Assembly (NCBI GenBank): GCA_035063765.1
Contig: JAPSFT010000001.1
Span: forward strand, 7,497-71,496
Direction: 5' to 3'
Origin: Deltaproteobacteria bacterium
GTDB lineage: Bacteria > Myxococcota_A > UBA9160 > PR03
DNA: 64,000 nt
The notes beneath the pieces are model-generated. The model worked only from the letters and a program-made list of their open reading frames with translations. It ran no database searches and had not been told where the DNA came from. Both the position numbers and the translations under genes were made by a program. Of this stretch, positions 47,971 through 59,110 are shown piece after piece. Numbering within the stretch: the first letter of the stretch is position 1; every line of letters begins with the position of its first letter.

Positions 47971-48037
47971 TGGCCGGCCGGGCGAGCGCTCCCCCCGCCG
48001 CTCATCCCTCGCGCAGCGAACGGTAGGCGCGCAGGTG

Positions 48038-49149
48038 GCGGAGCGCGCCGGCCGGATCGCCGAGCCGGTCGTGGAGCCGCGCGTCGTGGCGGAGGTGCGC
48101 TACGCCGAGGGCACCCGCGACGGGCGCCTGCGCCAGCCCGTCCTGCTGCGCCTGCGCGAGGACAAGAGGCCCGCCGGGATCGATGCGCCGCCCGGCCCGC
48201 GAGGCGGGCGCCCGAAGGTCCCGCGAAGCCGAAGGAGAAGAGCACGAAACCGAAGCCCGGACACGAGCTTGTCCTCACGAACCTCGACAAGACCTTCTGG
48301 CCGGACGAGGGCCTCACCAAGGGCGACCTGCTCGGCTACTACCGCGCGATCGCCCCCTGGCTCCTGCCCTACCTGCGCGACCGCCCGCTCACGCTCGTCC
48401 GGCACCCGGACGGGATCACGGGCAAGGCGTTCTTCCAGAAGGACGCGCCCGCCTCGGCGCCCGCGTGGGTGCGGCGCGAGCGGCTCTGGAGCGAGCACGG
48501 CCGTCGCGAGATCCGCTTCTTCGTCGTGGACGACGTGGACGCGCTGCTCTACGTCGCGAACCTCGGCGCCATCGCGCTCCACGTGCAGGCGAGCCGGGTC
48601 GCCGACCTCGCGCATCCCGACTGGTGCATCCTCGACCTCGACCCCAAGGGCGCACCCTTCCGCGACGTCGTCACGATCGCACGTACCCTCCATGGGCTCA
48701 CCGGCGAGATCGGGCTCCCGGCCTTCCCGAAGACCAGCGGCTCGGCGGGTCTGCACGTGCTCGTGCCCCTCGGAGGGCGCCTCACCTTCGCGAAGGCGCG
48801 CACGCTCGCGGAGCTCCTCGCGCGCGAGGTGGTGGCGCGCCACCCCGGGATCGCGACGCTCGCGCGGCGCGTGGCTGCTCGCGGCGGGCGCGTCTACGTC
48901 GACACCGGCCAGAACGGGCACGGGAAGCTCCTCGTGGCGCCCTTCTCGGTGCGCGCGCTGCCCGGGGCGCCGGTCTCGATGCCGCTGCGCTGGAGCGAGC
49001 TCGGCCCGCGCCTCGACCCGCGGCGCTTCACGATCCGCAACGCGCTCGCGCGCCTGCGCCGGCTCGGCGAGGATCCCCTCGCGCCGGTCCGGGGCCCCGC
49101 GCCCGACCTGCTCGGGGCGCTCGAACGGCTGGCCCGGCGGGGCCGCTGA
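48038..49149 (+). pseudogene. ligD: LigD remnant: last ~40 codons of the ATP-dependent ligase (OB) domain, a frameshift, then an apparently intact primase-polymerase (LigD-Pol) domain lacking any ATG/GTG/TTG start
   Basis: One frame reads AEPVVEPRVVAEVRYAEGTRDGRLRQPVLLRLREDKRP, the ligase-domain C-terminus. The next frame reads PAKPKEKSTKPKPGHELVLTNLDKTFWPDEG ... CILDLDP ... SGSAGLHVLVP ... VYVDTGQNGHGKLLVAPFSVR. That frame has no canonical start between 47971 and GTG 48469. Confidence 0.6.
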
Positions 49150-49200
49150 TCCCCCCACCGCTATCCTGCCCCCCCTGCCACGCAAGAACGGGGACGTCGG

Positions 49201-50088
49201 TTGCGTCGTCTGTCTCTCCTCGCGATCGCGCTCGCCGCCCGGGTCTGCGTGGCGCACGCCGCGCCGCCGCCGCCGCTCGGCGTGGTCGCCACCATCGAGC
49301 CGATCGCGATGATCGCGCGCGAGCTCGCCGGCGCGCACTTCACCGTCTCGACCCTCGTGCCGCCCGGCGCGAGCCCCCACACCTTCGATCCGCGCCCCGG
49401 CGACGTCGTGCGGGTGGCACGAGCCGCGCTCCTGATCGCGGTCGGGGGCGGCCTCGACGGCTGGACGCAGCGCCTGCTCGGCGCGAGCGGGCGCCCGGTC
49501 GAGACGCTCGTGCTGCTCGAGCTGCCGGACCTCGCGCCGCTGCCCGCGGCGGGCGCGGCGTCGCGCGGGTCCGATCCCCACGTCTGGCTCGACCCGCTCC
49601 GGGTGCGCGACGTGCTCGCGCCCGCCATCGCCGCCCGCCTGGAACACCTCGATCCCGCGCACGCCGCCGACACGGCGGCGCGGCTCGCCGATCTCCAGGC
49701 GCGCCTCACGAGCCTCGATCGCGACCTGCGCGCCGTGCTCGCGGGCCCGCGCCGCGCCTACGTGGCCTTCCACGCCGCCTGGCGCTACTTCGGGGCGCGC
49801 TACGGGCTGGAGGAGATCGGCGTGATCGAGGAGGCCCCCGGCGAGGAGCCGGGCCCGCGCGAGCTGGCGGAGCTGGTCGCGGCGGCGCGCGCCGTTGGCG
49901 TGCGCGCGATCCTGATCGAGCCGCAGCTCGACCCGCGCGTGGCGCGCACGCTGGCCGCGGAGTTCGGCGCCACCACCATACTGGTCGATCCCAACGGCGA
50001 CCCCACGGATCCTGAACGAGCCGGCTACGAAGGGCTCCTGCGCTGGAACGCCCGGGCCTTCGCGCGAGCGCTGGGCGGGAGCTCATGA
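49201..50088 (+). CDS. znuA: zinc ABC transporter substrate-binding protein ZnuA-like
   Basis: The start is TTG and a signal peptide is present. Cluster-9 SBP motifs are GASPHTFDPRPGD, SDPHVWLDP and HAAWRYF. Confidence 0.88.
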   Translation: MRRLSLLAIALAARVCVAHAAPPPPLGVVATIEPIAMIARELAGAHFTVSTLVPPGASPHTFDPRPGDVVRVARAALLIAVGGGLDGWTQRLLGASGRPVETLVLLELPDLAPLPAAGAASRGSDPHVWLDPLRVRDVLAPAIAARLEHLDPAHAADTAARLADLQARLTSLDRDLRAVLAGPRRAYVAFHAAWRYFGARYGLEEIGVIEEAPGEEPGPRELAELVAAARAVGVRAILIEPQLDPRVARTLAAEFGATTILVDPNGDPTDPERAGYEGLLRWNARAFARALGGSS

Positions 50089-50831
50089 GCGAGGTCGCGA
50101 TCCGCTTCGAGCACGTCGACGTGCTCCGCGACGGCCGGCTCGTGCTCGAGGACGTGAGCTTCGCGGTGGGCACGGGTCAGTTCGTCGGCGTGGTGGGCCC
50201 GAACGGCGCCGGCAAGACGACGCTCCTGCGCGCGCTCCTCGGCCTCCTGCCGGTGGCGCGCGGGCGCATCGAGGTGCTGGGGCGGCCGCCGGGCGCGGCG
50301 CGCGGCGAGATCGGCTACGTGCCCCAGCGACACATGATCGCCCCGGGCTTCCCGGCGACCGTCCGCGACGTGGTGGCGATGGGCCGGCGCGGGCGCCTGC
50401 GCGCGGGCGACCGCGAGGCGGTGGAGCGCGCCCTCGCGCGCGTGGACCTGCTCGAGCGCGCGGGCCGGCCGGTGGGCCGGCTCTCGGGCGGCGAGCAGCG
50501 GCGCGTGATGCTCGCCCAGGCGCTCTGCGCGGGCGCGCGCCTGCTGGTCCTCGACGAGCCCACGATCGGCCTCGACCTGCCGGCCGAGCAGGCCTTCTAC
50601 GCGCTGCTGCGCGGCCTCGACACCACCGTGCTCGCGGTCTCCCACGACCTCCTCGCGCTCGCCTCGGTGGCCGACGAGCTGATCTGCATCAACCGCACGA
50701 TGCACGTGCACGGCAACCCGGACGACGTCGTCCACAGCCACGCGCTGCGCGCCGCCTACCACTGCGAGTTCGACTTCCTGGCGGGCGAGCTCGCGCACCA
50801 CTCGAAGCCCTCCGCGGACCCGCGCTCCTGA
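50085..50831 (+). CDS. znuC: zinc ABC transporter ATP-binding protein ZnuC-like
   Basis: [20 protein letters not shown] and LLVLDEP are present. ATGA overlap with znuA. Confidence 0.9.
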
Positions 50832-51625
50832 TGCTGGAGCTCGCCTTCATGCAGCGTGCGCTGCTGGCCGCCGCGGCGATCGGCCTGGTGTGCGGCGCCC
50901 TCGGCTTCTTCGTCGTGCTGCGCCGGCTGGCCTTCATCGGGGTCGGGATCTCGCACTCGGCGATCGGCGGCGTCGCGCTCGCCGTCGTGCTCGGCTGGCC
51001 GCCGCTCGGGACGGCGGCGGTCTTCGCCGTGGCTGTGGCGCTCGCGATCGCGCGCCTCGCGCGCAGCGGGCGCCTGTCCGAGGACGCCGTGATCGGGATC
51101 TTCTTCTCGGGCTCGCTGGCGCTCGGGGTGGTGCTCTTCAGCCTGCGCCGGGGCTACCAGCAGGACCTCTTCGGCTACCTGTTCGGCAACGTGCTCGCGA
51201 TCACGCCGGGCGAGCTCGCGCTGCTTGCGGCCGCCGGCGCGGCGGTGCTGGCGGCGCTCGCGATCAGCTTCCGCCCGCTGCTCTTCCTGGCCTTCGACGA
51301 GGAGGTGGCGCGCGCCTACGGCCACCCGGTGGCCGCGCTCGAGACGGGGCTGCTGGTGCTCCTGGCCGTGACCGTGGTGATCGGGGTGCGGCTGGTCGGC
51401 GTGATCCTGGTCGAGGCCCTGCTCGTGGTCCCCGCCGCCACCGCGACCCTCTGGGCCACCCACTACCGGGCCCAGCTCGCCCTCGCGATGGCCCTCGGGG
51501 CGAGCGCCGGCGTCCTGGGCCTCGCCGCCGCCTACGCCTTCGACCTGGCGGCCGGCGGCACGATCGTGCTGGTCTCGGTGGCGGGCTTCTTCGTGTCCCT
51601 CGTGCTCCGGCCCCGGCCGGGATGA
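50831..51625 (+). CDS. znuB: zinc ABC transporter permease ZnuB-like
   Basis: 264-aa multi-TM ABC-3 family permease. Its start overlaps the znuC stop by 1 nt. Confidence 0.9.
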
Positions 51626-51765
51626 CCCCTCCCGGTCCCGGGACCACGACCCGGCCCCGGGATCGCGTGCCGGGGCCCTGGGCCGGCGCGATCGTTTTGC
51701 TATCTACAGGCGCCCCGGCGGGACCCGTCGCGCCGGAGCCTGCTCTTCACGAGGGACGATCGCCG

Positions 51766-52071
51766 ATGGCCAAGACCTCCCAGGTGCACCGGGACCTGCG
51801 CCGCAAGGCGCTGATCCAGAAGCACGCCGGCAAGCGCGCCGAGCTGCGCCAGAAGCTCCAGGACCCGGAGGTCTCGATCGAGGAGAAGCTGGCCGCCCAG
51901 CTCGCCTTCTCGAAGCTGCCGCGCAACTCGTGCCCCACGCGCAAGAAGAATCGCTGCGCGATCACCGGCCGCGCGCGCGCCTACTACAAGAAGTTCGGGA
52001 TCTCCCGCATCGCGCTGCGCGAGCTCGCGCTGGCGGGGCAGCTCCCGGGCGTGCGCAAGTCGAGCTGGTAG
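51766..52071 (+). CDS. rpsN: 30S ribosomal protein S14, long cysteine-poor (C-minus) form, located outside any spc-type operon
   Basis: ATG at 51766 is in frame with ORF 50890..52071. The sequence reads [28 protein letters not shown] ... [40 protein letters not shown]. The protein is 101 aa and has no CxxC pairs. Confidence 0.92.
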
Positions 52072-52084
52072 GAGCGAGCGCGCC

Positions 52085-52330
52085 GTGAAGCCCGGCATCC
52101 ATCCCGACTACCACAAGGTCATCTTCGTCGACAGCGCGAGCGGGACGGAGTGGACGACGCGCTCGACGATGGGCTCGAGCGAGACGCGCGAGGTGGACGG
52201 CGAGCAGGTCCCGGTGATCCGGCTCGAGGTCTCGGCCGTGAGCCACCCGTTCTGGACCGGCCAGCTCCGCGAGGCCGCGCGCGGCGGCAAGGTCGACGAG
52301 TTCCGGCGCCGCTACGGCAAGAAGAAGTAG
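52085..52330 (+). CDS. rpmE2: 50S ribosomal protein L31 type B (no cysteines, zinc-independent form)
   Basis: The sequence reads MKPGIHPDYHKVIFVDSASGTEW ... SHPFWTGQ. The CxxC positions of zinc-binding L31 are replaced (VDSAS). Confidence 0.92.
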   Translation: MKPGIHPDYHKVIFVDSASGTEWTTRSTMGSSETREVDGEQVPVIRLEVSAVSHPFWTGQLREAARGGKVDEFRRRYGKKK

Positions 52331-52339
52331 GAGACCCCG

Positions 52340-52621
52340 ATGCCCCGCCGCTGCGAGCTCACCGGGACGCGCGTGTCGTTCGGCCACAACGTCTCGCACT
52401 CGAACCGCAAGTCGAGCCGGACGTTCGCGCCGAACCTCCAGAGCGTGTCGCTGCTCTCCGACGGCCTCGGCCGCTCCGTGCGCCTGCGCGTCTCGACGCG
52501 CGCGCTGCGCTCCGTCCAGAAGCGCGGTGGGCTCGACGCCTTCCTGCTCGGCACGCCCGACGACCGGCTTCCGCCCGAGGCCCTCGAGCTCAAGCGCCGC
52601 CTGCGCCGCGCGATCGGCTAG
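52340..52621 (+). CDS. rpmB: 50S ribosomal protein L28
   Basis: The sequence [34 protein letters not shown] is the canonical L28 N-terminus. Confidence 0.92.
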
Positions 52622-52655
52622 CGCGACGCCCGCCGCGGCGAGCGGACGCGAGGGA

Positions 52656-52994
52656 ATGACGGAGCGCGCCACACAGCGACGGCTCGCAGCCGCGCTCGCG
52701 GCGGCCGCGCTCCTCGCCCTCGGCGCGCCGCTCCACCAGCACCACGGCGTCTCCGAAGCATCGGCGCAGACGATCACCGGCCACGCCACGGCGGCGGACG
52801 TGGCCCACGGGGGCGCCGGCTGCCCCGCCTGCCAGACGAGCGCGACCCGCGCCGGGGCGGCGCCGCCCGGCATCGCCTCGCTGCCGTTCGCCCTCCCGGC
52901 GCTCCGCCTCGACGCGGCCCGCACGCCGGCGGCTCCATCCACCGAGACGCGTCTCCCGAGTCCGCCCCGCGGCCCACCGTCCCCGATCGCCTGA
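52656..52994 (+). CDS. small secreted His/Cys-containing hypothetical protein
   Basis: ATG at 52656 is in frame with ORF 52527..52994. It has a signal peptide (LAAALAAAALLALGAP), then HQHHG and HGGAGCPAC, and a Pro/Ala-rich tail. Confidence 0.5.
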   Translation: MTERATQRRLAAALAAAALLALGAPLHQHHGVSEASAQTITGHATAADVAHGGAGCPACQTSATRAGAAPPGIASLPFALPALRLDAARTPAAPSTETRLPSPPRGPPSPIA

Positions 52995-53108
52995 CTCGAA
53001 TCCCGTCACGAGTCATCCGGCGACCGCGTGCGTCGCGCCCTCGAGCGCGTGGCCGCGGCCGCCCGCATCGTGCGCGCGCCGGCATGACGGCGCGCGCCGG
53101 AGGGGACC

Positions 53109-54599
53109 ATGCGGAGCTCCGCGTTCCACCTGTCGATTGCCTTCCTGTGCCTTTCCTGTGCGACGGAGGCCGGCGCCGCCGAGCCGGTGCCGCCCACGAT
53201 CCAGCAGCAGCTCGACGCCCTCGCTCGCGAGAACGCCGAGCTGCGCCGCACCGTCGAGACGCTCGCCGACGAGGTGCGCGCGGCGCGCGACGAGGCGCGC
53301 GCGGCCGGCGCCCAGGCGCCCGCCGGGGCGGCGCCGATCGCCGGCGCCCCCCCCGACGGCGCACTGCTCTCGCTGGGCGGCGGCCGCCTCCAGCTCCTCG
53401 ACCTCTCGCTCGACGTGCTCGCCGCGGCCGGCTGGTCGGACGCCACCAACGACCAGCTCGGGCTGCTCGAGGGCGGCGGCCACGACCCGCGCCGGCGCGG
53501 CTTCACGCTGCAGCAGGCGGAGCTCTCGATGGCGGGCGCGGTCGACCCGTACTTCACGGGCGAGGCGCACCTGGTCTACTTCATCGATCCCGAGGGCGAA
53601 TCGCGCTTCGAGCTCGAGGAGGCGTTCGTCACCACCACGAGCCTGCCCTTCGGGCTCCACGAGCGCGGCGCGCAGCTCGAGATGGGGCACTTCTTCACCG
53701 AGTTCGGCCGCATCAACCCCCAGCACCCGCACCAGTGGGACTGGATGGACCAGCCCGTCGTGAGCACGCGCTTCTTCGGCGAAGACGGGCTGCGCGCGCC
53801 CGGCGTGCGGCTCGGCTGGCTGCTCCCGGTGCCGTGGTTCTCCGAGGTCCACCTCGGCGCGCAGAACGCCAACGGCGAGACGATGCTCTCGTTCCTGGCC
53901 AGCGACGAGGCCTTCGAGGAGCGCCCGATCGGGGGGCGGCCCTTCGCCGACGTCGACGTGCGCTCGCCGAAGGACCTGCTCTACCTGGCGCGCTGGGTGA
54001 ACGGCGTCGACCTCTCGGACACGACGAGCGCGCAGCTCGGCGTCTCCTACGTGACCGGCCCGAACGCGACCGGGCCGGACGGGAGGACCCACATCGTGGG
54101 GGGCGACGTCGTCGTGAAGTGGCGTCCGCTCAGCGCCGAACACGGCTGGCCCTTCGTGACCTTCCAGGCCGAGCTGATGGGCCGCCGCTACGAGGCCGAC
54201 GGCTTCGACCTGTGCCTCGACGAGGACTGCCAGGACCTGGTCGGGGTCGGCAGCGACGACCTCGAGGACTGGGGCTTCTACGCGCAGCTCCTCTACGGCT
54301 TCCGGCGCAACTGGGCCGCTGGCTTCCGCGTCGAGCACGCGGGCGGCAGCGGCCACGACTTCGACCAGGACAGCTCGCTCGACGACGGCGCGCCGGTCTT
54401 CGCCTCGCGCGAGGACGACCCGTTCCGGAGCGACCGCACCCGGATCGCGCCGCTGCTGGTCTTCCATCCCTCGGAGTTCTCGCGCCTGCGCCTGCAGGCC
54501 AACTACGACTGGACCGAAGGCCCGGAGCTCGACGACGCGCTCTCCGTGTGGGCCGGGATCGAGTTCCTGTTCGGCGCCCACGCGGCGCACGCGTACTAG
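53109..54599 (+). CDS. outer-membrane beta-barrel (porin-like) protein with N-terminal coiled coil and His-rich C-terminus
   Basis: 496-aa ORF with a signal peptide (LSIAFLCLSCATEAGAA) and a heptad-like segment (IQQQLDALARENAELRRTVETLADEV). Long stretches alternate hydrophobic and polar residues. It ends ...FLFGAHAAHAY, with the terminal aromatic typical of OMP barrels. Confidence 0.7.
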   Translation: MRSSAFHLSIAFLCLSCATEAGAAEPVPPTIQQQLDALARENAELRRTVETLADEVRAARDEARAAGAQAPAGAAPIAGAPPDGALLSLGGGRLQLLDLSLDVLAAAGWSDATNDQLGLLEGGGHDPRRRGFTLQQAELSMAGAVDPYFTGEAHLVYFIDPEGESRFELEEAFVTTTSLPFGLHERGAQLEMGHFFTEFGRINPQHPHQWDWMDQPVVSTRFFGEDGLRAPGVRLGWLLPVPWFSEVHLGAQNANGETMLSFLASDEAFEERPIGGRPFADVDVRSPKDLLYLARWVNGVDLSDTTSAQLGVSYVTGPNATGPDGRTHIVGGDVVVKWRPLSAEHGWPFVTFQAELMGRRYEADGFDLCLDEDCQDLVGVGSDDLEDWGFYAQLLYGFRRNWAAGFRVEHAGGSGHDFDQDSSLDDGAPVFASREDDPFRSDRTRIAPLLVFHPSEFSRLRLQANYDWTEGPELDDALSVWAGIEFLFGAHAAHAY

Positions 54600-54608
54600 G
54601 AGGCCGCC

Positions 54609-55622
54609 ATGACCCTGCGACAGCTCGCGCTTCCGATCCTCTTCGTCGCCATGCTCGCGCCGGGGGGCGCCCGCGCCGACGCGCTGCGGGTGGTGGCGAC
54701 CACCCCGGACCTCGCCGACCTCGCCCGGCAGGTGGGCGGCGACGCGGTCGAGGTCACCTCGCTCGCCAAGGGCCCCCAGGACGTCCACTTCGTCGAGCCG
54801 CGCCCGAGCTTCGTGAAGGAGCTGCACCGGGCGGAGCTGCTGATCCGTGTGGGCATGGGGCTCGAGAGCGGCTGGCTACCCCCCCTGCTCGGCGCAGCCC
54901 GCAACCCCCGCATCCAGCGCGGCGCCGCAGGCTCCCTCGACGCCTCGACGGCGATCGTGCCGCGCGAGGTGCCGCAGGCCCGGGTCGACCGCTCGATGGG
55001 CGACGTGCACCCGTTCGGGAACCCGCACTACCTGCCGGATCCGCTGAACGGGCTGCGCGTCGCGGGCGCGATCCGCGACCGGCTCTCGGCGCTGCGTCCG
55101 GACCAGGCGCGCGCGTTCGCCGCGCGCTACCACGCGTTCGCTGCCCGGCTCGTCGAACGGCTGGTGGGCGCGGAGCTCGCGGGGCAGCGCACGCCGGCCG
55201 AGATCGCGGCCGCCGTCGAGGCAGGCCGGCTCCCGGCGCTGGTCGCCGAGGCGGGTGCGTCGCTCGGGGGCTGGCTCGGTGCGATCGGGACCGGGCCGCC
55301 GCGCAAGGCGGTGGAGGACCATCGCGCGTGGATCTACCTGGCCGAGCGCTTCGGGCTCGAGCTGGTGGCCGCGCTCGAGCCGCTGCCGGGCATCGCGCCG
55401 ACCACGCGCCAACTCCAGGAGGTGGTCGAGCAAATGCAGGCGGAACGCGTGAATCTGATCCTGTCTACCCCGTACTTCTCGCCGCGCCACGCGGAGTTCG
55501 TCGCGGAACGCACGGGCGCGCGCATCGTCGAGCTCGCCCACCAGACCGGCAGCCGTCCGGGCACCGACGACTACCTGGCGACGGTCGACTTCAACGTGCG
55601 TGCGCTGGTCGGGGCGCGCTGA
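54609..55622 (+). CDS. second metal (Zn/Mn-type) ABC transporter substrate-binding protein
   Basis: A signal peptide is present. The motifs LRVVATTPDLADL, QDVHFVEPRPS, GDVHPFGNPHY and DHRAWIYL indicate a cluster-9 SBP of a different subtype from the znuA at 49201. Confidence 0.85.
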   Translation: MTLRQLALPILFVAMLAPGGARADALRVVATTPDLADLARQVGGDAVEVTSLAKGPQDVHFVEPRPSFVKELHRAELLIRVGMGLESGWLPPLLGAARNPRIQRGAAGSLDASTAIVPREVPQARVDRSMGDVHPFGNPHYLPDPLNGLRVAGAIRDRLSALRPDQARAFAARYHAFAARLVERLVGAELAGQRTPAEIAAAVEAGRLPALVAEAGASLGGWLGAIGTGPPRKAVEDHRAWIYLAERFGLELVAALEPLPGIAPTTRQLQEVVEQMQAERVNLILSTPYFSPRHAEFVAERTGARIVELAHQTGSRPGTDDYLATVDFNVRALVGAR

Positions 55623-56320
55623 TGCCGGTGCTCGCGTTGCGCGGCGCGCGCATCGGCCACGGCGGGCGCAGCGTGCTCGCCGGCGTGGACTGGGAGGTCC
55701 ACGCCGGCGAGAGCTGGTTCGTGCTCGGCCCGAACGGCGCCGGCAAGACCTCCCTCCTCCACACCGTGCTGGGCCTGCTGCCGCTCCAGGGCGGGCGGCT
55801 CGAACGCGACCCCGAGCGCGCGAGCCTGGCGCGGATCGGCTTCGTGCCGCAGCGCTGCGAGCTGAGCCCGACGCTGCCGACGACCGTCCGCGAGTTCGTG
55901 ACGCTCGGGCGGGTCGGCCTGCCTCGCGCGCGCGCTGGCGAGCTCGCCGAGGCCCTCGCACGCGCGGGCCTCGCGGGGCTCGAGGAGCGCAGCTACTGGT
56001 CGCTCTCGGGCGGCCAGCGGCAGCGCGCGCTGGTGGCGCGGGCGCTCGTGCGCCGGCCCGCCCTCCTGATCCTCGACGAGCCCACCGAGGGCCTCGATCC
56101 GCCCAGCGAGGACGCCTTCCTCGAGGTCGTGGACGCGCTCCAACGCGAGCGGAGGGTGACGGTGCTCTTCGTCACGCACCGGCTCGCGCTGGCCGCGCGG
56201 CGCGCGAGCCACCTCGCGCTGGTGGACGCCGGCACCGTGGTCGCCGGGCCACGCGAGGAGATGCTGGGCCGGCCCGAGCTGCGGCGCGCCTTCGGATCGG
56301 CGCTGGCGGGCCTCGCGTGA
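55622..56320 (+). CDS. metal ABC transporter ATP-binding protein
   Basis: ATG at 55622 overlaps the upstream TGA by 1 nt. [19 protein letters not shown] and LLILDEP are present. Confidence 0.9.
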   Translation: MPVLALRGARIGHGGRSVLAGVDWEVHAGESWFVLGPNGAGKTSLLHTVLGLLPLQGGRLERDPERASLARIGFVPQRCELSPTLPTTVREFVTLGRVGLPRARAGELAEALARAGLAGLEERSYWSLSGGQRQRALVARALVRRPALLILDEPTEGLDPPSEDAFLEVVDALQRERRVTVLFVTHRLALAARRASHLALVDAGTVVAGPREEMLGRPELRRAFGSALAGLA

Positions 56321-57165
56321 TCGAATCGTTCCTCGAGTCCTGGGCGCTGTTCCAGACCACGTATCTCGCGGGAACGGCGCTGGCGGCGCTGCTCGCGCTG
56401 GTGGGCGTGTGGGTGGTGGCGCGCGAGCAGGTCTTCCTCGGCGCCGCGATCGGCCAGGCCTCGACGCTCGGCATCGCAGCCCTGCTGTGGGGCGCCGGGC
56501 TCGGCGCAGCGGCGCACTGGCCGTGGCTCGAATCGCGCGCCGCCGCCGACGTCGCCGCGGTGGCGGCGTCGGTGACGACGGCGCTGCTGACCGCGAGCCC
56601 GCGGCGCGCAGGTGCGGCGGGCGCCGAGGCGCGCACGGCGTGGATCTTCCTCGCCGCTGCGAGCCTGCCGGTGCTGCTGCTCGCGCACAGCCCGCACGGG
56701 CTCGAGGAGGTGCACCGGCTGATGTTCTCGACCCTGATCGGCGCCCACGAAGGGGAACTCGCGGTGTTCGCGGCCCTGGCGGCAGCGAGCATGCTCGGGG
56801 CTGCGTGCTGGAGCGACCGGCTCCGGCTGCTCGCGATGGACCCGGAGATGGCGGCGGCGGTCGGGATCCCGGCCCGGCGCTGGCTGCGCGGCGTGGCGCT
56901 GTGGCTCGGGCTCGCGATCGGCCTCTCGATCCGCTCCTCGGGTCTCATCTACACCCTCGGATGTTTGGTGCTCCCGGCGCTCGTGGCGCGCAACCTGTGT
57001 CGCGAGGTGCGGCCGATGCTCTGGGTAGCGCCGGCCGTCGCGGCGGCATCCGCCCTCACGGCCTTCGTAGTCGCCAATGCCGCCGACGTGCCGCCGGCGC
57101 ACGCCGCGGTCGCGCTCCTTTGCGCGCTCGTGGCCCTGACCGCACCCCGGCACCGGACTGCCTGA
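56317..57165 (+). CDS. metal ABC transporter permease (ABC-3 family)
   Basis: GTG at 56317 overlaps the upstream stop (GTGA) and is in frame with ORF 55600..57165. The protein is multi-TM. Confidence 0.85.
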   Translation: MIESFLESWALFQTTYLAGTALAALLALVGVWVVAREQVFLGAAIGQASTLGIAALLWGAGLGAAAHWPWLESRAAADVAAVAASVTTALLTASPRRAGAAGAEARTAWIFLAAASLPVLLLAHSPHGLEEVHRLMFSTLIGAHEGELAVFAALAAASMLGAACWSDRLRLLAMDPEMAAAVGIPARRWLRGVALWLGLAIGLSIRSSGLIYTLGCLVLPALVARNLCREVRPMLWVAPAVAAASALTAFVVANAADVPPAHAAVALLCALVALTAPRHRTA

Positions 57166-57170
57166 GGGTT

Positions 57171-57180
57171 CCCCCCCCCC
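57171..57180. repeat. intergenic homopolymeric C10 tract
   Basis: Ten consecutive C residues lie 5 nt after the permease stop codon (TGA 57163-57165) and about 120 nt upstream of the small PEP-CTERM ORF. Confidence 0.9.
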
Positions 57181-57299
57181 GCTCGGGCCCTGCTGATCCC
57201 CTTCCGCCTCCTGCGCGCGCAGATGGCCCCCTCATCGCGCTCAGTTCCGAGCCCGTTTCCGCCGATGGGGGGAGCGGGACCGGTAGCGAGGGGAGCGTC

Positions 57300-57740
57300 G
57301 TGGCGCGTCGGATCGTCACAGGGGTCCTGCTCATCGTCTGCCTGGCGGTGGCGCCCCCCGCAGCGCACGGCCCGGCAACGCCCGCGCCCGGCTGGGACCT
57401 GTTTGCGGCGGAGGCGCAGTTCGTGAGCCTGGCGCCGCGAGCGGCTTTCGCACCGGAGAGCGCCGCGTTGACGGCCGGGCACAGGCCGCACGCGACGCCC
57501 GAACCCGCCGCGCTGTTGCTCCTCAGCCTCTGCCTGCTCGGTCTCCGCCAGCGTCAGTGGGTGCGCGCCCTCAGCCACGCGGCAGCAACCGCGCGCGGCG
57601 AGCGGCCGCCCTGGTCCACCGCGCCGTTCAGGCGCCGCATGGTCGGGGCGTCGATCGCACCCCCGAGCCCGGCGAGCGCACGCACCACCTCGGGACGCTC
57701 ACGGGCCAGCCGCGCGCCCGCCAGCACCACCGCGTCGTAG
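57300..57740 (+). CDS. small PEP-CTERM-type secreted protein (tentative)
   Basis: GTG at 57300 (GAGGGGAG upstream) is in frame with ORF 56409..57740. It has a signal peptide (RRIVTGVLLIVCLAVAPPAAHG) and the motif ATPEPAALLLLSLCLLGLRQRQ. The frame stays open about 60 codons further and overlaps the convergent gene. Confidence 0.4.
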   Translation: MARRIVTGVLLIVCLAVAPPAAHGPATPAPGWDLFAAEAQFVSLAPRAAFAPESAALTAGHRPHATPEPAALLLLSLCLLGLRQRQWVRALSHAAATARGERPPWSTAPFRRRMVGASIAPPSPASARTTSGRSRASRAPASTTAS

Positions 57741-59110
57741 GGCGGGATCACGCCCCGCTCGTCGCGCAGCAGCACGAGGCCGCGGGCTGCGATCCGGCCG
57801 TCGGTCGAGAAGGCGCTGATCACGTCGACCTGCCCGCTCGCGAGCGCGTCGTACATGAGCGAGGGGTCCATGCTGCGTTCGCTCCGGAACGCGAGCCCGT
57901 AGGCGGCGACGAGGGCACGCCACTCGGGGCGTTCCAGGAACTCGTAGTCGGCGCCGATCGCGAGCGAGGGGGCGTGGCGCGCCAGGTCCGCGATGGTCGC
58001 GATCCCGAGCGCGCGGGCGCGATCGCCGCGCATCGCGAGCGCGTAGGCGTTCTCGAAGCCGAGCGCCGCGACCAGCGTGACCCCGTCCTGCTCCGCGAGC
58101 GCGCGGCGCACCTCCGCCAGCATCGCGGCGCGGGCGGGAGGCGGCCCGCTGCGGCCGAGCACCGTGGCCCACAGGGTCCCGGTGTAGTCCACGTACGCGT
58201 CGATCTCGCCCGCGCGCAGCGCGTCGAAGAGCACCGTCGAGCCGAGGGAGCCCAGCACCCGCGCCGGGGCGCCCGTCTCGCGCGCGATCCAGCCGGCCAG
58301 CAGCTCGGCCAGCACGTACTGCTCGGTGAAGGTCTTGGCTCCGATCACGACCGGCGCCGGAGCGCTCGCGGCCGCGCCTCCCCCACCCGCGCGCGGCAGG
58401 CTCGCGGCGGCGGCGAGCAGCGCGAGGCCCGCGAGCGCGGCGGCCACGAGCCCGCGCCGGCGCCCGGCCACGCCGCGCTCGAGCAGGCGGATCGCCCGGT
58501 CGAGGGTGAAGGCCAGGGCGGCCGCGGCCCCGCAGCCGAGCGACACCGCCGCGTAGTTGCGGGTCTGGAGCCCGCTGAAGATGAAGTGGCCGAGGCTCGG
58601 CGCGCCGACCGGGGTCGCGAGGGTCGCGGTCCCCACCACCCAGACCGCCGCGGTGCGCAGGCCCGCGATCATCACCGGCAGCGCGAGCGGCAGCTCGACG
58701 CGCCAGAGCCGCTGCCGGCCGGTCATGCCCATCGCGCGGGCGGCCTCCCGCACGCCGGGATCGACGCCCGCGAGGCCGGCAACGACGTTCTGGAGGATCG
58801 GCAGCGTTCCGTAGAGCGAGAGCGCGAGCAGCGCCGGGGCGACCCCGATCGCCGGTACCGCGAAGCCGAGCACGCGCAGGCTCCAGCCCCCGAGCGCGGC
58901 GAGGACGGGCACCATGAAGGCCAGGAGCGCCAGGCTCGGGATCGTCTGGAGGGCGCCCACGAGGGCCAGGAGTACGCGCCCCCCGCGCGGCTGCCGGCTG
59001 GCCCAGACCCCGAGCGGGACGCTCGCCGCCGTCGCGATCAGAAGCGCCGCGAGCGAGAGCTGGAGGTGCGCCGCGGTGTAGCGCGGGAGCTCGCCGAGCA
59101 GCTCGCTCAC
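57554..59110 (-). CDS. osmoprotectant (glycine betaine/choline-type) ABC transporter, fused permease and substrate-binding domains
   Basis: 518-aa ORF. The N-terminal BPD permease domain carries the EAA-loop context VREAARAMGMTGRQRLWRVELPLA. The C-terminal OpuAC-type SBP reads VVIGAKTFTEQYVLAEL ... YVDYTGTLW. Confidence 0.88.
   Translation of the reverse strand: MSELLGELPRYTAAHLQLSLAALLIATAASVPLGVWASRQPRGGRVLLALVGALQTIPSLALLAFMVPVLAALGGWSLRVLGFAVPAIGVAPALLALSLYGTLPILQNVVAGLAGVDPGVREAARAMGMTGRQRLWRVELPLALPVMIAGLRTAAVWVVGTATLATPVGAPSLGHFIFSGLQTRNYAAVSLGCGAAAALAFTLDRAIRLLERGVAGRRRGLVAAALAGLALLAAAASLPRAGGGGAAASAPAPVVIGAKTFTEQYVLAELLAGWIARETGAPARVLGSLGSTVLFDALRAGEIDAYVDYTGTLWATVLGRSGPPPARAAMLAEVRRALAEQDGVTLVAALGFENAYALAMRGDRARALGIATIADLARHAPSLAIGADYEFLERPEWRALVAAYGLAFRSERSMDPSLMYDALASGQVDVISAFSTDGRIAARGLVLLRDERGVIPPYDAVVLAGARLARERPEVVRALAGLGGAIDAPTMRRLNGAVDQGGRSPRAVAAAWLRARTH

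Follow-up and report, generated by a model that had tools for sequence, protein, structure and literature searches.

Between positions 49201 and 57165 of the window, by which we mean the whole 64-kb stretch of contig JAPSFT010000001.1 from a Deltaproteobacteria bacterium analysed here, lie eleven co-oriented open reading frames (ORFs) on the plus strand. They encode two Znu-type ABC importers, the ribosomal proteins S14, L31 and L28, an outer-membrane protein (OMP) and a small protein resembling the regulatory leader peptides CruR and CutF. The GC content of the window is 70-81%, and each of the eleven ORFs has a third-position GC content of 0.90-0.99 and a plausible ribosome-binding site. This is probably a composite locus that serves both to acquire zinc and to spare it, assembled from three units that are found separately elsewhere, the third of which would be an importer under the control of its own leader. 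The genes, and the variable block formed by the last five of them, are as follows:

49201-50088, plus strand: znuA1, a cluster A-I periplasmic metal-binding protein (PF01297, E 8e-65)
50085-50831, plus strand: znuC1, an ABC ATPase (PF00005, E 3e-29), overlapping znuA1 by 4 nt
50831-51625, plus strand: znuB1, an ABC-3 permease (PF00950, E 3e-67; amongst NCBIfam models AztB matches best, with 198 bits for a cut-off of 280)
51766-52071, plus strand: an apparent rpsN paralogue, encoding S14 in its long, non-zinc form, 101 aa (NF006477, 133.5 bits against a cut-off of 77; PF00253)
52085-52330, plus strand: rpmE2, type B (zinc-free) L31, 81 aa (NF002462, 103.7 bits, cut-off 86; PF01197)
52340-52621, plus strand: a copy of rpmB, L28, 93 aa (TIGR00009, 80.3 bits against a cut-off of 48.3; PF00830)
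52656-52994, plus strand: a mini-protein of 112 aa with 2 Cys and 5 His, a putative CruR/CutF-like (DUF2946-type) leader (sub-threshold match to PF11162, and motifs)
53109-54599, plus strand: the OMP, a predicted porin-like barrel of 496 aa (AlphaFold and Foldseek; no Pfam or NCBIfam family)
54609-55622, plus strand: znuA2, a second cluster A-I binding protein (PF01297, E 1e-44)
55622-56320, plus strand: znuC2, an ABC ATPase (PF00005, E 7e-26)
56317-57165, plus strand: znuB2, an ABC-3 type permease with a GTG start (weak NCBIfam match to AztB, E 2e-12; in loci L002 and L006 the identical gene carries a PF00950 label)
52623-57171, plus strand: the five-gene cassette, present in some and absent from other near-identical strains (BLAST against L001 and L003)

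An original prediction, made from the sequence alone, had seen here eleven plus-strand genes with tiny or overlapping junctions, forming a single zinc-starvation island. All eleven genes are present, and the description of the junctions holds for eight of them, the distances in gene order being -4, -1, 140, 13, 9, 34, 114, 9, -1 and -4 nt; it fails for the 140 nt before the S14 gene and the 114 nt before the OMP gene, and these two gaps mark internal regulatory regions. Proteins identical to those of the window are found under NCBI entries MEB2343163-67, among which the mini-protein and the OMP are named hypothetical, and L31 (MEB2343164.1) is named as type B L31.

The locus consists of three separable modules, rather than of one unit: znuABC (module 1), the ribosomal protein genes (module 2) and the cassette (module 3). 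A look-up of identical L31 sequences returned six contig places. Of these, L002, L005 and L006 are 99.8-100% identical to the window over the parts covered. In L001 and L003, which also encode the identical L31, the L28 gene is followed directly by an OpuAC-type permease gene and the cassette is absent, although their left flanks are 99.9% and 98.4% identical to the window respectively. The break point falls directly after the L28 stop codon: window positions 50202-52622 are 99.9% identical in L001 by BLAST, 83 unrelated bp then stand in place of the 4549 bp from 52623 to 57171, and beyond them homology resumes at 95.9% identity. In L003, the matching sequence restarts only at about 57476. The cassette, missing from strains that are otherwise 98-99.9% identical, thus forms a block of 4.5 kb that is acquired or lost in one piece.

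The same modularity is evident at greater distances, where neighbourhoods were read for up to 10 kb either side of each match. A genome collection scanned with aligned OMP homologues yielded 80 loci, of more than 550 confirmed candidates, which span the Myxococcota, Planctomycetota, Methylomirabilota, Binatia, Nitrospirota, Nitrospinota, Entotheonella, Geobacteraceae, Marinimicrobia and others. The order OMP-znuA2-znuC2-znuB2 is kept in nearly all of these 80 loci, and the S14-L31-L28 genes adjoin the cassette in one of them (L034), as they also do in L008 and L092, which came from other look-ups. These three loci retain the full eleven-gene order, and in relatives with that order the OMP is 73-87% identical to that of the window. 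Elsewhere, the five-gene unit stands by itself amid unrelated genes (L007, L009 and L010). A metagenome scan with S14 likewise revealed S14-L31-L28 to be a conserved trio, preceded by znuABC in the closest relatives and linked to it in at least ten, which is found alone in L104, L109 and L110, flanked by a class-I tRNA synthetase gene and a MatE gene. Downstream of the trio, L093, L097, L102 and L127 encode a barrel only 25% identical to that of the window (E 3e-22), with its own importer and leader ORF; this second barrel subfamily is characterised by a length of about 540 aa and the motif GRMPHWH. The association between trio and cassette is therefore recurrent within the clade of the window, yet each part is autonomous. 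The zinc theme of the original prediction stands, whilst its single island is only partly borne out, given the absence of the cassette from L001 and L003 and the existence of both trio and cassette alone.

The half of the locus comprising znuABC and the ribosomal protein genes is a familiar arrangement in a new lineage. The finding is the other half: the cassette encodes an unannotated importer, predicted to span the envelope and headed by a DUF2946-type leader, probably for zinc. An operon combining leader, barrel and Znu-type importer appears to be undescribed in the literature searched; neither of the two studies of such leaders drawn on below (PMC9426467; PMC9973294) mentions ZnuA, ABC importers, porins or zinc.

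The first gene of the cassette had been described as a His/Cys mini-protein. The gene is real and does encode two Cys and five His, but on its motifs the product is best read as an arrest-peptide leader of the CruR/CutF (DUF2946) type, that is, as a regulatory element. A CxxC motif, C56-P-A-C59 (nt 52821-52832), is followed by 45 residues, then by R105-G-P-P108 (nt 52968-52979), four further residues and a UGA stop codon. In Bordetella pertussis, the DUF2946 upstream ORF Bp2923, or CruR, controls the TonB-dependent transporter gene bfrG (Roy et al. 2022, PMC9426467); there, translation arrest is lifted once the nascent chain senses copper, leading to Rho-dependent termination before the gene for this copper-uptake transporter (PMC9426467). 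CruR peptides are distinguished by a CxxC motif, a spacing of 45 residues (in Bp2923), a RAPP-like C terminus and a long intergenic region (PMC9426467). The window leader is likewise a small, putatively exported protein at the head of an uptake operon, with CxxC, the same 45 residues, RGPP near the stop codon and a long gap thereafter. It differs from CruR in its downstream genes, where a porin-like barrel and a Znu-type importer are encoded in place of a TonB-dependent transporter with PepSY, and in having a genomic context that points to zinc, a sub-threshold Pfam score and no clear Rho loading-site signature.

A second comparison is with CutF of Rhodobacter capsulatus, copper-dependent stalling of which during export melts a stem-loop shielding the next ribosome-binding site (Ozturk et al. 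2023, PMC9973294). With CutF the window leader shares a probable place in the DUF2946 family and a proline-rich C-terminal motif of the stalling type, and a GC stem-loop abuts the next Shine-Dalgarno sequence (53072-53100); unlike in CutF, this stem-loop lies about 80 nt from the leader stop codon. Moreover, CutF turns on a detoxifying enzyme at high copper, whereas the window leader would control an importer, such that the opposite logic is expected. The metal-off logic of CruR is the one we infer, because the controlled genes form an importer. With the mini-protein read as an arrest-peptide leader, the last five genes would have their own post-transcriptional metal sensor.

The leader is widespread amongst homologous cassettes. 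A filter requiring an upstream ORF with CxxC followed by R[A/G/S]PP was passed by 53 of the 78 loci with enough upstream sequence, two of which look spurious (L019 and L087), leaving 51. Across these loci, the spacing between CxxC and RxPP ranges from 43 to 48 residues, with a mode of 45, and the tail to the stop codon is most often three residues long; the C-terminal motif is RAPP in 30 cases, RGPP in 12 and RSPP in eight. The gap between leader and OMP gene, 114 nt in the window, has a median of 209 nt over the 53 loci. When 44 leaders were aligned, the only invariant columns were C56, C59, R105, P107 and P108, the mean column identity elsewhere being 18%; H27, following the signal segment, is nearly invariant, and many orthologues have His-rich stretches before the CxxC motif. 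PF11162 is matched by ten of the 44 (E<=0.01), alongside one stray match to another family (DUF2284, in a single member). A profile search with the leader alignment gave 13 matches only, none of them Pfam-labelled, and was of no help for family placement. One locus (L022, 6457-14149) contains a Fur-family gene, a CruR-like leader (CLLC...RAPPA), znuABC, a barrel and znuA2C2B2, the leader there heading both importers.

Two hairpins are predicted in the RNA between the leader and the OMP gene:

52992-53015, plus strand: hairpin in the minimum-free-energy fold, the 5' arm of which includes the leader UGA stop codon (UGACUCG...CGAGUCA)
53072-53100, plus strand: GC hairpin of 10-13 bp in the predicted fold, which abuts and partly overlaps the OMP Shine-Dalgarno sequence GGAGGGG (53099-53105)

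At the site of the stop-codon hairpin L008 has UGAACUC...GAGUUCA, so that pairing is retained via changes on both sides. As a general feature this hairpin was rejected, the stop codon being paired in only 15 of 50 loci with a median z of about 0, and it is regarded as local. A hairpin analogous to that adjacent to the Shine-Dalgarno sequence is present in L092, L008, L009 and L010.

The OMP has a signal peptide, a predicted helix or coiled coil at residues 29-68 and, thereafter, a beta-barrel with more than 20 predicted strand segments. In the AlphaFold model, based on an alignment of 36 sequences (pLDDT 74.5, pTM 0.70), the predicted fold is a porin-like barrel. Foldseek comparison of this model with the PDB returned chitoporin, OprP/OprO, PorB, DcaP and AlgE (E 3e-11 to 1e-8), with a probability of 1.00 and a TMq of 0.42-0.48 for chitoporin, OprP, PorB and DcaP. 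Like DcaP of Acinetobacter, the OMP combines a predicted porin-like barrel with an N-terminal coiled coil; unlike DcaP and OprP/OprO, which are trimeric, substrate-selective porins of the 16-strand type, it is in no known porin sequence family, its sequence identity to the structural matches being 10-12%. No Pfam or NCBIfam family was found for it, the faint matches being to an Lpp-like alanine zipper (E 0.09) and to the LbtU porin (E 0.2). LbtU is a TonB-independent outer-membrane siderophore receptor; the match to it is far below cut-off and serves as a lead only.

The family to which the OMP belongs is large: after clustering at 50% identity, it comprises 3527 representatives with an E-value limit of 1e-3, and 2252 with a limit of 1e-10. 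Its invariant motifs include GGGHDP, NPxHPHxWDWxDQP, C369...C374 and a C-terminal HxxHxY, with H125-D126, H206, H208, W210, W212, D214, C369, C374, H491 and H494 among the invariant residues, several of which are in loops of low predicted confidence. His/Asp/Glu-rich repeats of the DEHGH type occupy one loop in ten of the 80 homologues, mostly from Binatia. These repeats (e.g. DEHGHADEHGHADEH), found in L066-L078, L083, L060 and L058 in the loop equivalent to residues ~262-275 of the window OMP, resemble the His-rich loops of zinc-binding proteins. The invariant His-rich motifs, and in some members the repeats, distinguish the family from known porins and receptors. Its role may equal that of the TonB-dependent receptor ZnuD, which takes zinc across the outer membrane (compare also ZnuK/L; PMC4176598). 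In contrast to ZnuD and ZnuK/L, the OMP has neither a plug domain nor a TonB box, a profile search having detected no Plug or TonB-dependent-receptor domain in it, and hence it would be TonB-independent.

The original prediction of two cluster-9 metal ABC importers is borne out. Each system has a PF01297 binding protein, an ABC-3 permease and an ABC ATPase encoded in one operon, and both binding proteins carry the three-His set of the zinc-type cluster A-I. SPHTF, DPHVW and AFHAAW are the motifs that hold the His ligands of ZnuA1, to which an Asp close to the C terminus is added, and the best PDB match is Synechocystis ZnuA (2OV1/1PQ4, E 7e-30), with three His aligned. Synechocystis ZnuA gives the best alignment for both binding proteins, and its three conserved His, which are its zinc ligands, match His in ZnuA1 and ZnuA2; the third ligand in the aligned site is therefore His, not Glu. 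H60, H140 and H238 of ZnuA2 are invariant in 63 of 63 homologues, and likewise a D132-x-H134 loop. None of the NCBIfam equivalog cut-offs for ZnuA, AztC, ZnuB and AztB is reached by either system, ZnuA1 scoring 138 with the AztC model (cut-off 350) and 110 with the ZnuA model (cut-off 268), and ZnuA2 scoring 88 with the AztC model. Module 1 is an ordinary Znu/Azt-like ABC importer. Both systems share the three-His PF01297 protein, ABC-3 permease and ABC ATPase with ZnuABC and AztABCD (Synechocystis ZnuA, 1PQ4/2OV1; Paracoccus AztC), from which they differ in falling below the equivalog cut-offs and in being without a His-rich loop and without an AztD or ZinT partner. Module 3 departs further from these relatives, through the extra invariant D-x-H loop of ZnuA2 and the placement of znuA2 in an operon with an outer-membrane channel gene. 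In the Binatia loci L066-L078, about 450-500 nt of additional sequence, possibly another gene, lie between znuA2 and znuC2.

The metal handled by the cassette was approached through its neighbours, by Pfam scans of 259 flanking ORFs and by targeted searches of the 80 loci for metal markers. Amongst the flanking ORFs, cobW/COG0523 and FUR are among the top recurring upstream families and ZIP is the top downstream family. The targeted searches found a Fur-family gene in 13 loci, COG0523 in nine and ZIP in 12; SCO1 was found in one, and CopA, CsoR and CtaG in none. In eight Binatia loci without a leader (within L066-L078), a divergent Fur-family gene is present instead, with COG0523 directly upstream of the OMP gene in seven, and in all six of the Binatia loci inspected the Fur-COG0523 intergenic region contains an inverted repeat rich in AT, which reads TTTACAATATAGTTGCAAA or differs from this by one base. 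In the clade of the window, the cassette adjoins znuABC and the zinc-free ribosomal protein genes even where the barrel is of the 25%-identical subfamily. Judged from this context and from the three invariant His of the binding protein, zinc would be the likelier cargo, roughly twice as likely as copper.

The ribosomal protein trio contributes to that context. L31 contains no cysteine and passes the type B model, as the original prediction had it. S14 was said to be cysteine-less, which is incorrect, as it has two isolated Cys; it is, as also claimed, the long form without CxxC pairs, encoded outside a ribosomal operon. L28 has one Cys. As it lacks a CxxC pair, S14 is taken to be the non-zinc (C-) form, and none of the relatives seen has its gene in an spc-type operon. 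The three genes are accordingly read as encoding zinc-free forms of S14, L31 and L28, and would be alternative, second copies. Zur regulons include paralogues of L31, S14 and L28 (PMC6103462), and known C- paralogues include RpmEB and YhzA of B. subtilis and, in mycobacteria, the altRP operon rpmB2-rpmG2-rpsN2-rpsR2 together with rpmE2 (PMC6103462; PMC5912738). The window trio is drawn from the same families, with the zinc-ribbon cysteines lost, and it too lies outside the core ribosomal operons, adjoining a zinc importer. It differs from these Zur-regulated paralogues in that neither a Zur gene nor a Zur box was found in the 64-kb window, in being limited to S14-L31-L28, and in its lineage, that of an uncultured high-GC deltaproteobacterial/Myxococcota metagenome-assembled genome. 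No type Z S14 from this lineage was among the matches of the metagenome scan, the type Z loci that it returned (L128-L170) being from lower-GC organisms, with 46-68% GC. A different ribosomal association is found at L083 (7045-9700, Binatia), where solitary L28 and L24-like genes beside a Fur-family gene are followed by an SCO1-like gene, a CruR-like leader and a barrel; zinc and copper signals are mixed at this locus.

As regards the control of modules 1 and 2, the absence of an AT-rich Zur-type palindrome, noted in the original prediction, was confirmed: none of the four intergenic regions of the cluster contains an AT-rich or a perfect palindrome. The Zur control proposed alongside it fared less well, in that no Fur-family gene was found in the window (phmmer, E<=10) and no operator either. 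An Rfam scan of 48500-58000 at E<=1 returned nothing relevant, and scans for sigma-70 promoters and terminators found no promoter-like and one terminator-like site, no more than in shuffled sequences. Three sites deserve mention:

49160-49170, plus strand: motif GCTATCCTGCC, weak, about 30 nt upstream of znuA1, which may be a -10 region (TATCCT)
51696-51714, plus strand: promoter-like, non-palindromic motif TTTGCTATCTACAGGCGCC in the 140-nt gap before the S14 gene, conserved in relatives
51715-51736, plus strand: GC hairpin in the S14 5' leader, CCGGCGGGACCCGTCGCGCCGG, at the same position in L091, L092 and L094

The GCTATCCTGCC motif is partly kept in L008 (CCATCCTGCC...TGCCA.GCA) and has no equivalent in L095 and L099. 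Conservation of TTTGCTATCTACAGGCGCC extends further: L008, L091, L092 and L094 have it unchanged or almost so, and it can be recognised in L093-L102 and L111, despite divergence of the flanks, with a consensus across relatives of T[G/T]TGCTAnnTA. It occurs once in the window and is the most AT-rich 19-mer of the cluster. From its sequence, it may be an extended -10 type promoter element (TGnTATCTA), giving the trio its own start. A sigma-54 reading of the TTGCTA motif was rejected, the GG and GC elements being 14 nt apart, not 12. In L091, L092 and L094, the GC hairpin of the S14 leader is followed by a U-rich tract, and might constitute a leader or attenuator for the trio. Additionally, a GC palindrome, CCGGGCCCGG, is found as an exact match, 42-111 nt upstream of the S14 gene in L103, L104, L107 and L108, twice each in L104 (one copy mismatched) and L108, and three copies with one mismatch lie at 51607-51660, in the znuB1-S14 gap of the window. 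It is not enriched across the window, with 33 matches against 26.4 expected, and could be either an operator or a mere GC-rich structure.

That module 3 is an undescribed system of zinc uptake, widespread in numerous phyla of which most are uncultured, pairing a TonB-independent, His-lined porin with a Znu-type importer and governed not by Zur but by a DUF2946 arrest peptide that reads zinc, is a reading we put forward tentatively, at somewhat less than an even chance. A series of observations weighs against the composite zinc reading as a whole. CxxC is a classic Cu(I) motif. SCO1/PCuAC-type genes lie beside the cassette in L010 and L083, with CsoR and a copper-type P-type ATPase nearby in L010. 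Furthermore, every characterised DUF2946 leader (CruR, CutF, CopL) senses copper (PMC9426467; PMC9973294). The zinc-marker counts are inflated by about ten related Binatia genomes, and represent only about five or six independent lineages. The window leader scores 21.0 bits against the PF11162 gathering score of 23.7 (E 6e-4), below threshold, and its export signal, an N-terminal hydrophobic stretch (RRLAAALAAAALLALGAP) like those of its orthologues, was judged by eye only. Its RNA folds no better than shuffled sequences (z about -1.1) in this GC-rich context, and a clear signature of a Rho loading site was not seen, the median C/G ratio of the leader-to-OMP gaps being 1.06 against 1.00 for the loci, with no consistent bias of C over G. 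Neither primary, zinc-binding S14, L31 and L28 nor zur was found within the 64-kb window, or within the <=10 kb beside matches in relatives. It could be argued from the copper signals that module 3 is a copper system like CruR-BfrG, in which the leader senses periplasmic copper and the barrel and ABC system import it, for instance for haem-copper oxidases: the studied DUF2946 leaders are copper sensors in copper-related operons, the L010 cassette is set amid genes for SCO1/PCuAC, CtaG, CsoR and a P-type ATPase, and the SCO1-like gene of L083 lies just upstream of the leader. We think this unlikely, as the three invariant His match the zinc class of cluster A-I proteins, copper markers are present in one of the 80 loci against nine to 13 for Fur-family, COG0523 and ZIP, and the cassette of the window clade adjoins znuABC and zinc-free ribosomal proteins. 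To our knowledge, there is no copper-importing cluster A-I protein. Nor need the leader imply copper, Ozturk et al. noting that not all CutF-like leaders are copper-specific and that some may sense other metals (PMC9973294). The 112-aa protein might alternatively be no leader at all but a stable periplasmic or membrane-anchored metallochaperone, passing metal from the barrel to ZnuA2, for which its signal-like N terminus, near-invariant H27, His-rich stretches and invariant CxxC would be suited, as would the constant position of its gene directly upstream of that for the barrel. Such a role is improbable: conservation is confined to CxxC, the C-terminal RxPP and the spacing between them, the pattern of an arrest peptide rather than a folded domain, a long gap separates its gene from the next, the Binatia loci with an adjacent Fur-family regulator dispense with the protein, and a Bordetella homologue was undetected by proteomics (PMC9426467).

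Two further explanations concern the locus as a whole. All eleven genes might be one Zur-repressed island, expressed as one or two transcripts from a non-canonical, GC-rich operator, with the mini-protein as a periplasmic metal-binding accessory. The co-orientation and tight spacing of the genes fit this, as do the eleven-gene order of L008, L034 and L092, its recurrence with the divergent barrel subfamily, and the Fur-family genes beside homologous cassettes in other lineages; CCGGGCCCGG, upstream of S14 in four relatives and with three near-copies in the window, would be the candidate operator. Yet this palindrome is unenriched, the window lacks a Fur-family gene, its four intergenic regions lack a palindromic operator, two of the internal gaps are long, acquisition or loss affects the whole cassette at once, and the mini-protein has the hallmarks of an arrest peptide whilst being otherwise poorly conserved; there is consequently only a small chance of a single Zur regulon. 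A still smaller one attaches to the proposal that S14, L31 and L28 are the sole copies in the genome, housekeeping genes that lie beside znuABC by chance. Many bacteria are indeed generally known to have no S14 other than the long form lacking CxxC, and no L28 other than one with a single Cys, and the trio stands beside housekeeping genes in L104, L109 and L110. Against this, L31 passes the type B model, S14 is never within an spc-type operon in the relatives seen, and the linkage to znuABC recurs in at least ten relatives. A softer argument is that, between L034 and the window, the trio diverges to the same extent as the neighbouring transporters (72-80% against 65-78% identity), unlike core ribosomal proteins.

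On the composite reading that we prefer, the Znu/Azt-like importer of module 1 (49201-51625) would be accompanied by module 2 (51766-52621), an operon of zinc-free S14, L31 and L28 with its own promoter-like element, which would allow ribosomes to be built without zinc. Module 3 (52656-57165), headed by the 112-aa, putatively exported leader, would span the cell envelope: the barrel, with its invariant His, Asp and Glu motifs, would admit metal to the periplasm independently of TonB, the three-His binding protein would capture it, and the ABC permease and ATPase would import it. During translation and export of the leader, its CxxC motif and nearby His would sample periplasmic metal whilst the ribosome pauses on RGPP, by analogy with CruR. 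Where metal is scarce, the paused ribosome would keep the downstream mRNA open or protected, such that the barrel and importer are made; metal bound to the nascent chain would relieve the pause, whereupon the 114-nt leader RNA would shut the operon, through either termination or hiding of the ribosome-binding site.

The remainder of the window is ordinary chromosome, with genes for MetH, MutL, Der, a trehalose-phosphate synthase and a sigma-54 activator. Directly upstream of znuA1, at ~47990-49149, is a LigD-like gene (DNA_ligase_A_C and Prim-Pol); compared with L004, which is 99.7% identical, it is frameshifted by 1 nt, its N-terminal and Prim-Pol parts being in different frames, indicating either a pseudogene or an assembly error. 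On the other side of the cassette, 57172-57950 is the stretch most divergent between strains, with 91-96% identity compared to over 99% in the flanks. A small ORF at ~57300-57740 encodes a PEP-CTERM-like C-terminal tail, TPEPAALLLLSLCLLGLRQRQ (weak NCBIfam match, E 0.02).

The locus offers a caution, in that tight, co-oriented clusters are not necessarily single regulons: here, a five-gene block varies between strains that are 99.9% identical alongside it. The passage of zinc across the outer membrane is poorly understood beyond a few TonB-dependent receptors, and a porin-type barrel family found almost always with a Znu-type importer represents a concrete, clonable candidate for this step. 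Equally, the approximately 50 leaders that head a zinc-type importer provide a direct test case for the metal range of DUF2946 peptides. If the reading proposed here is correct, nascent-chain metal sensing, so far limited to copper, would extend to zinc, and in the clade of the window module 3 would have been recruited beside znuABC and the zinc-free ribosomal proteins.

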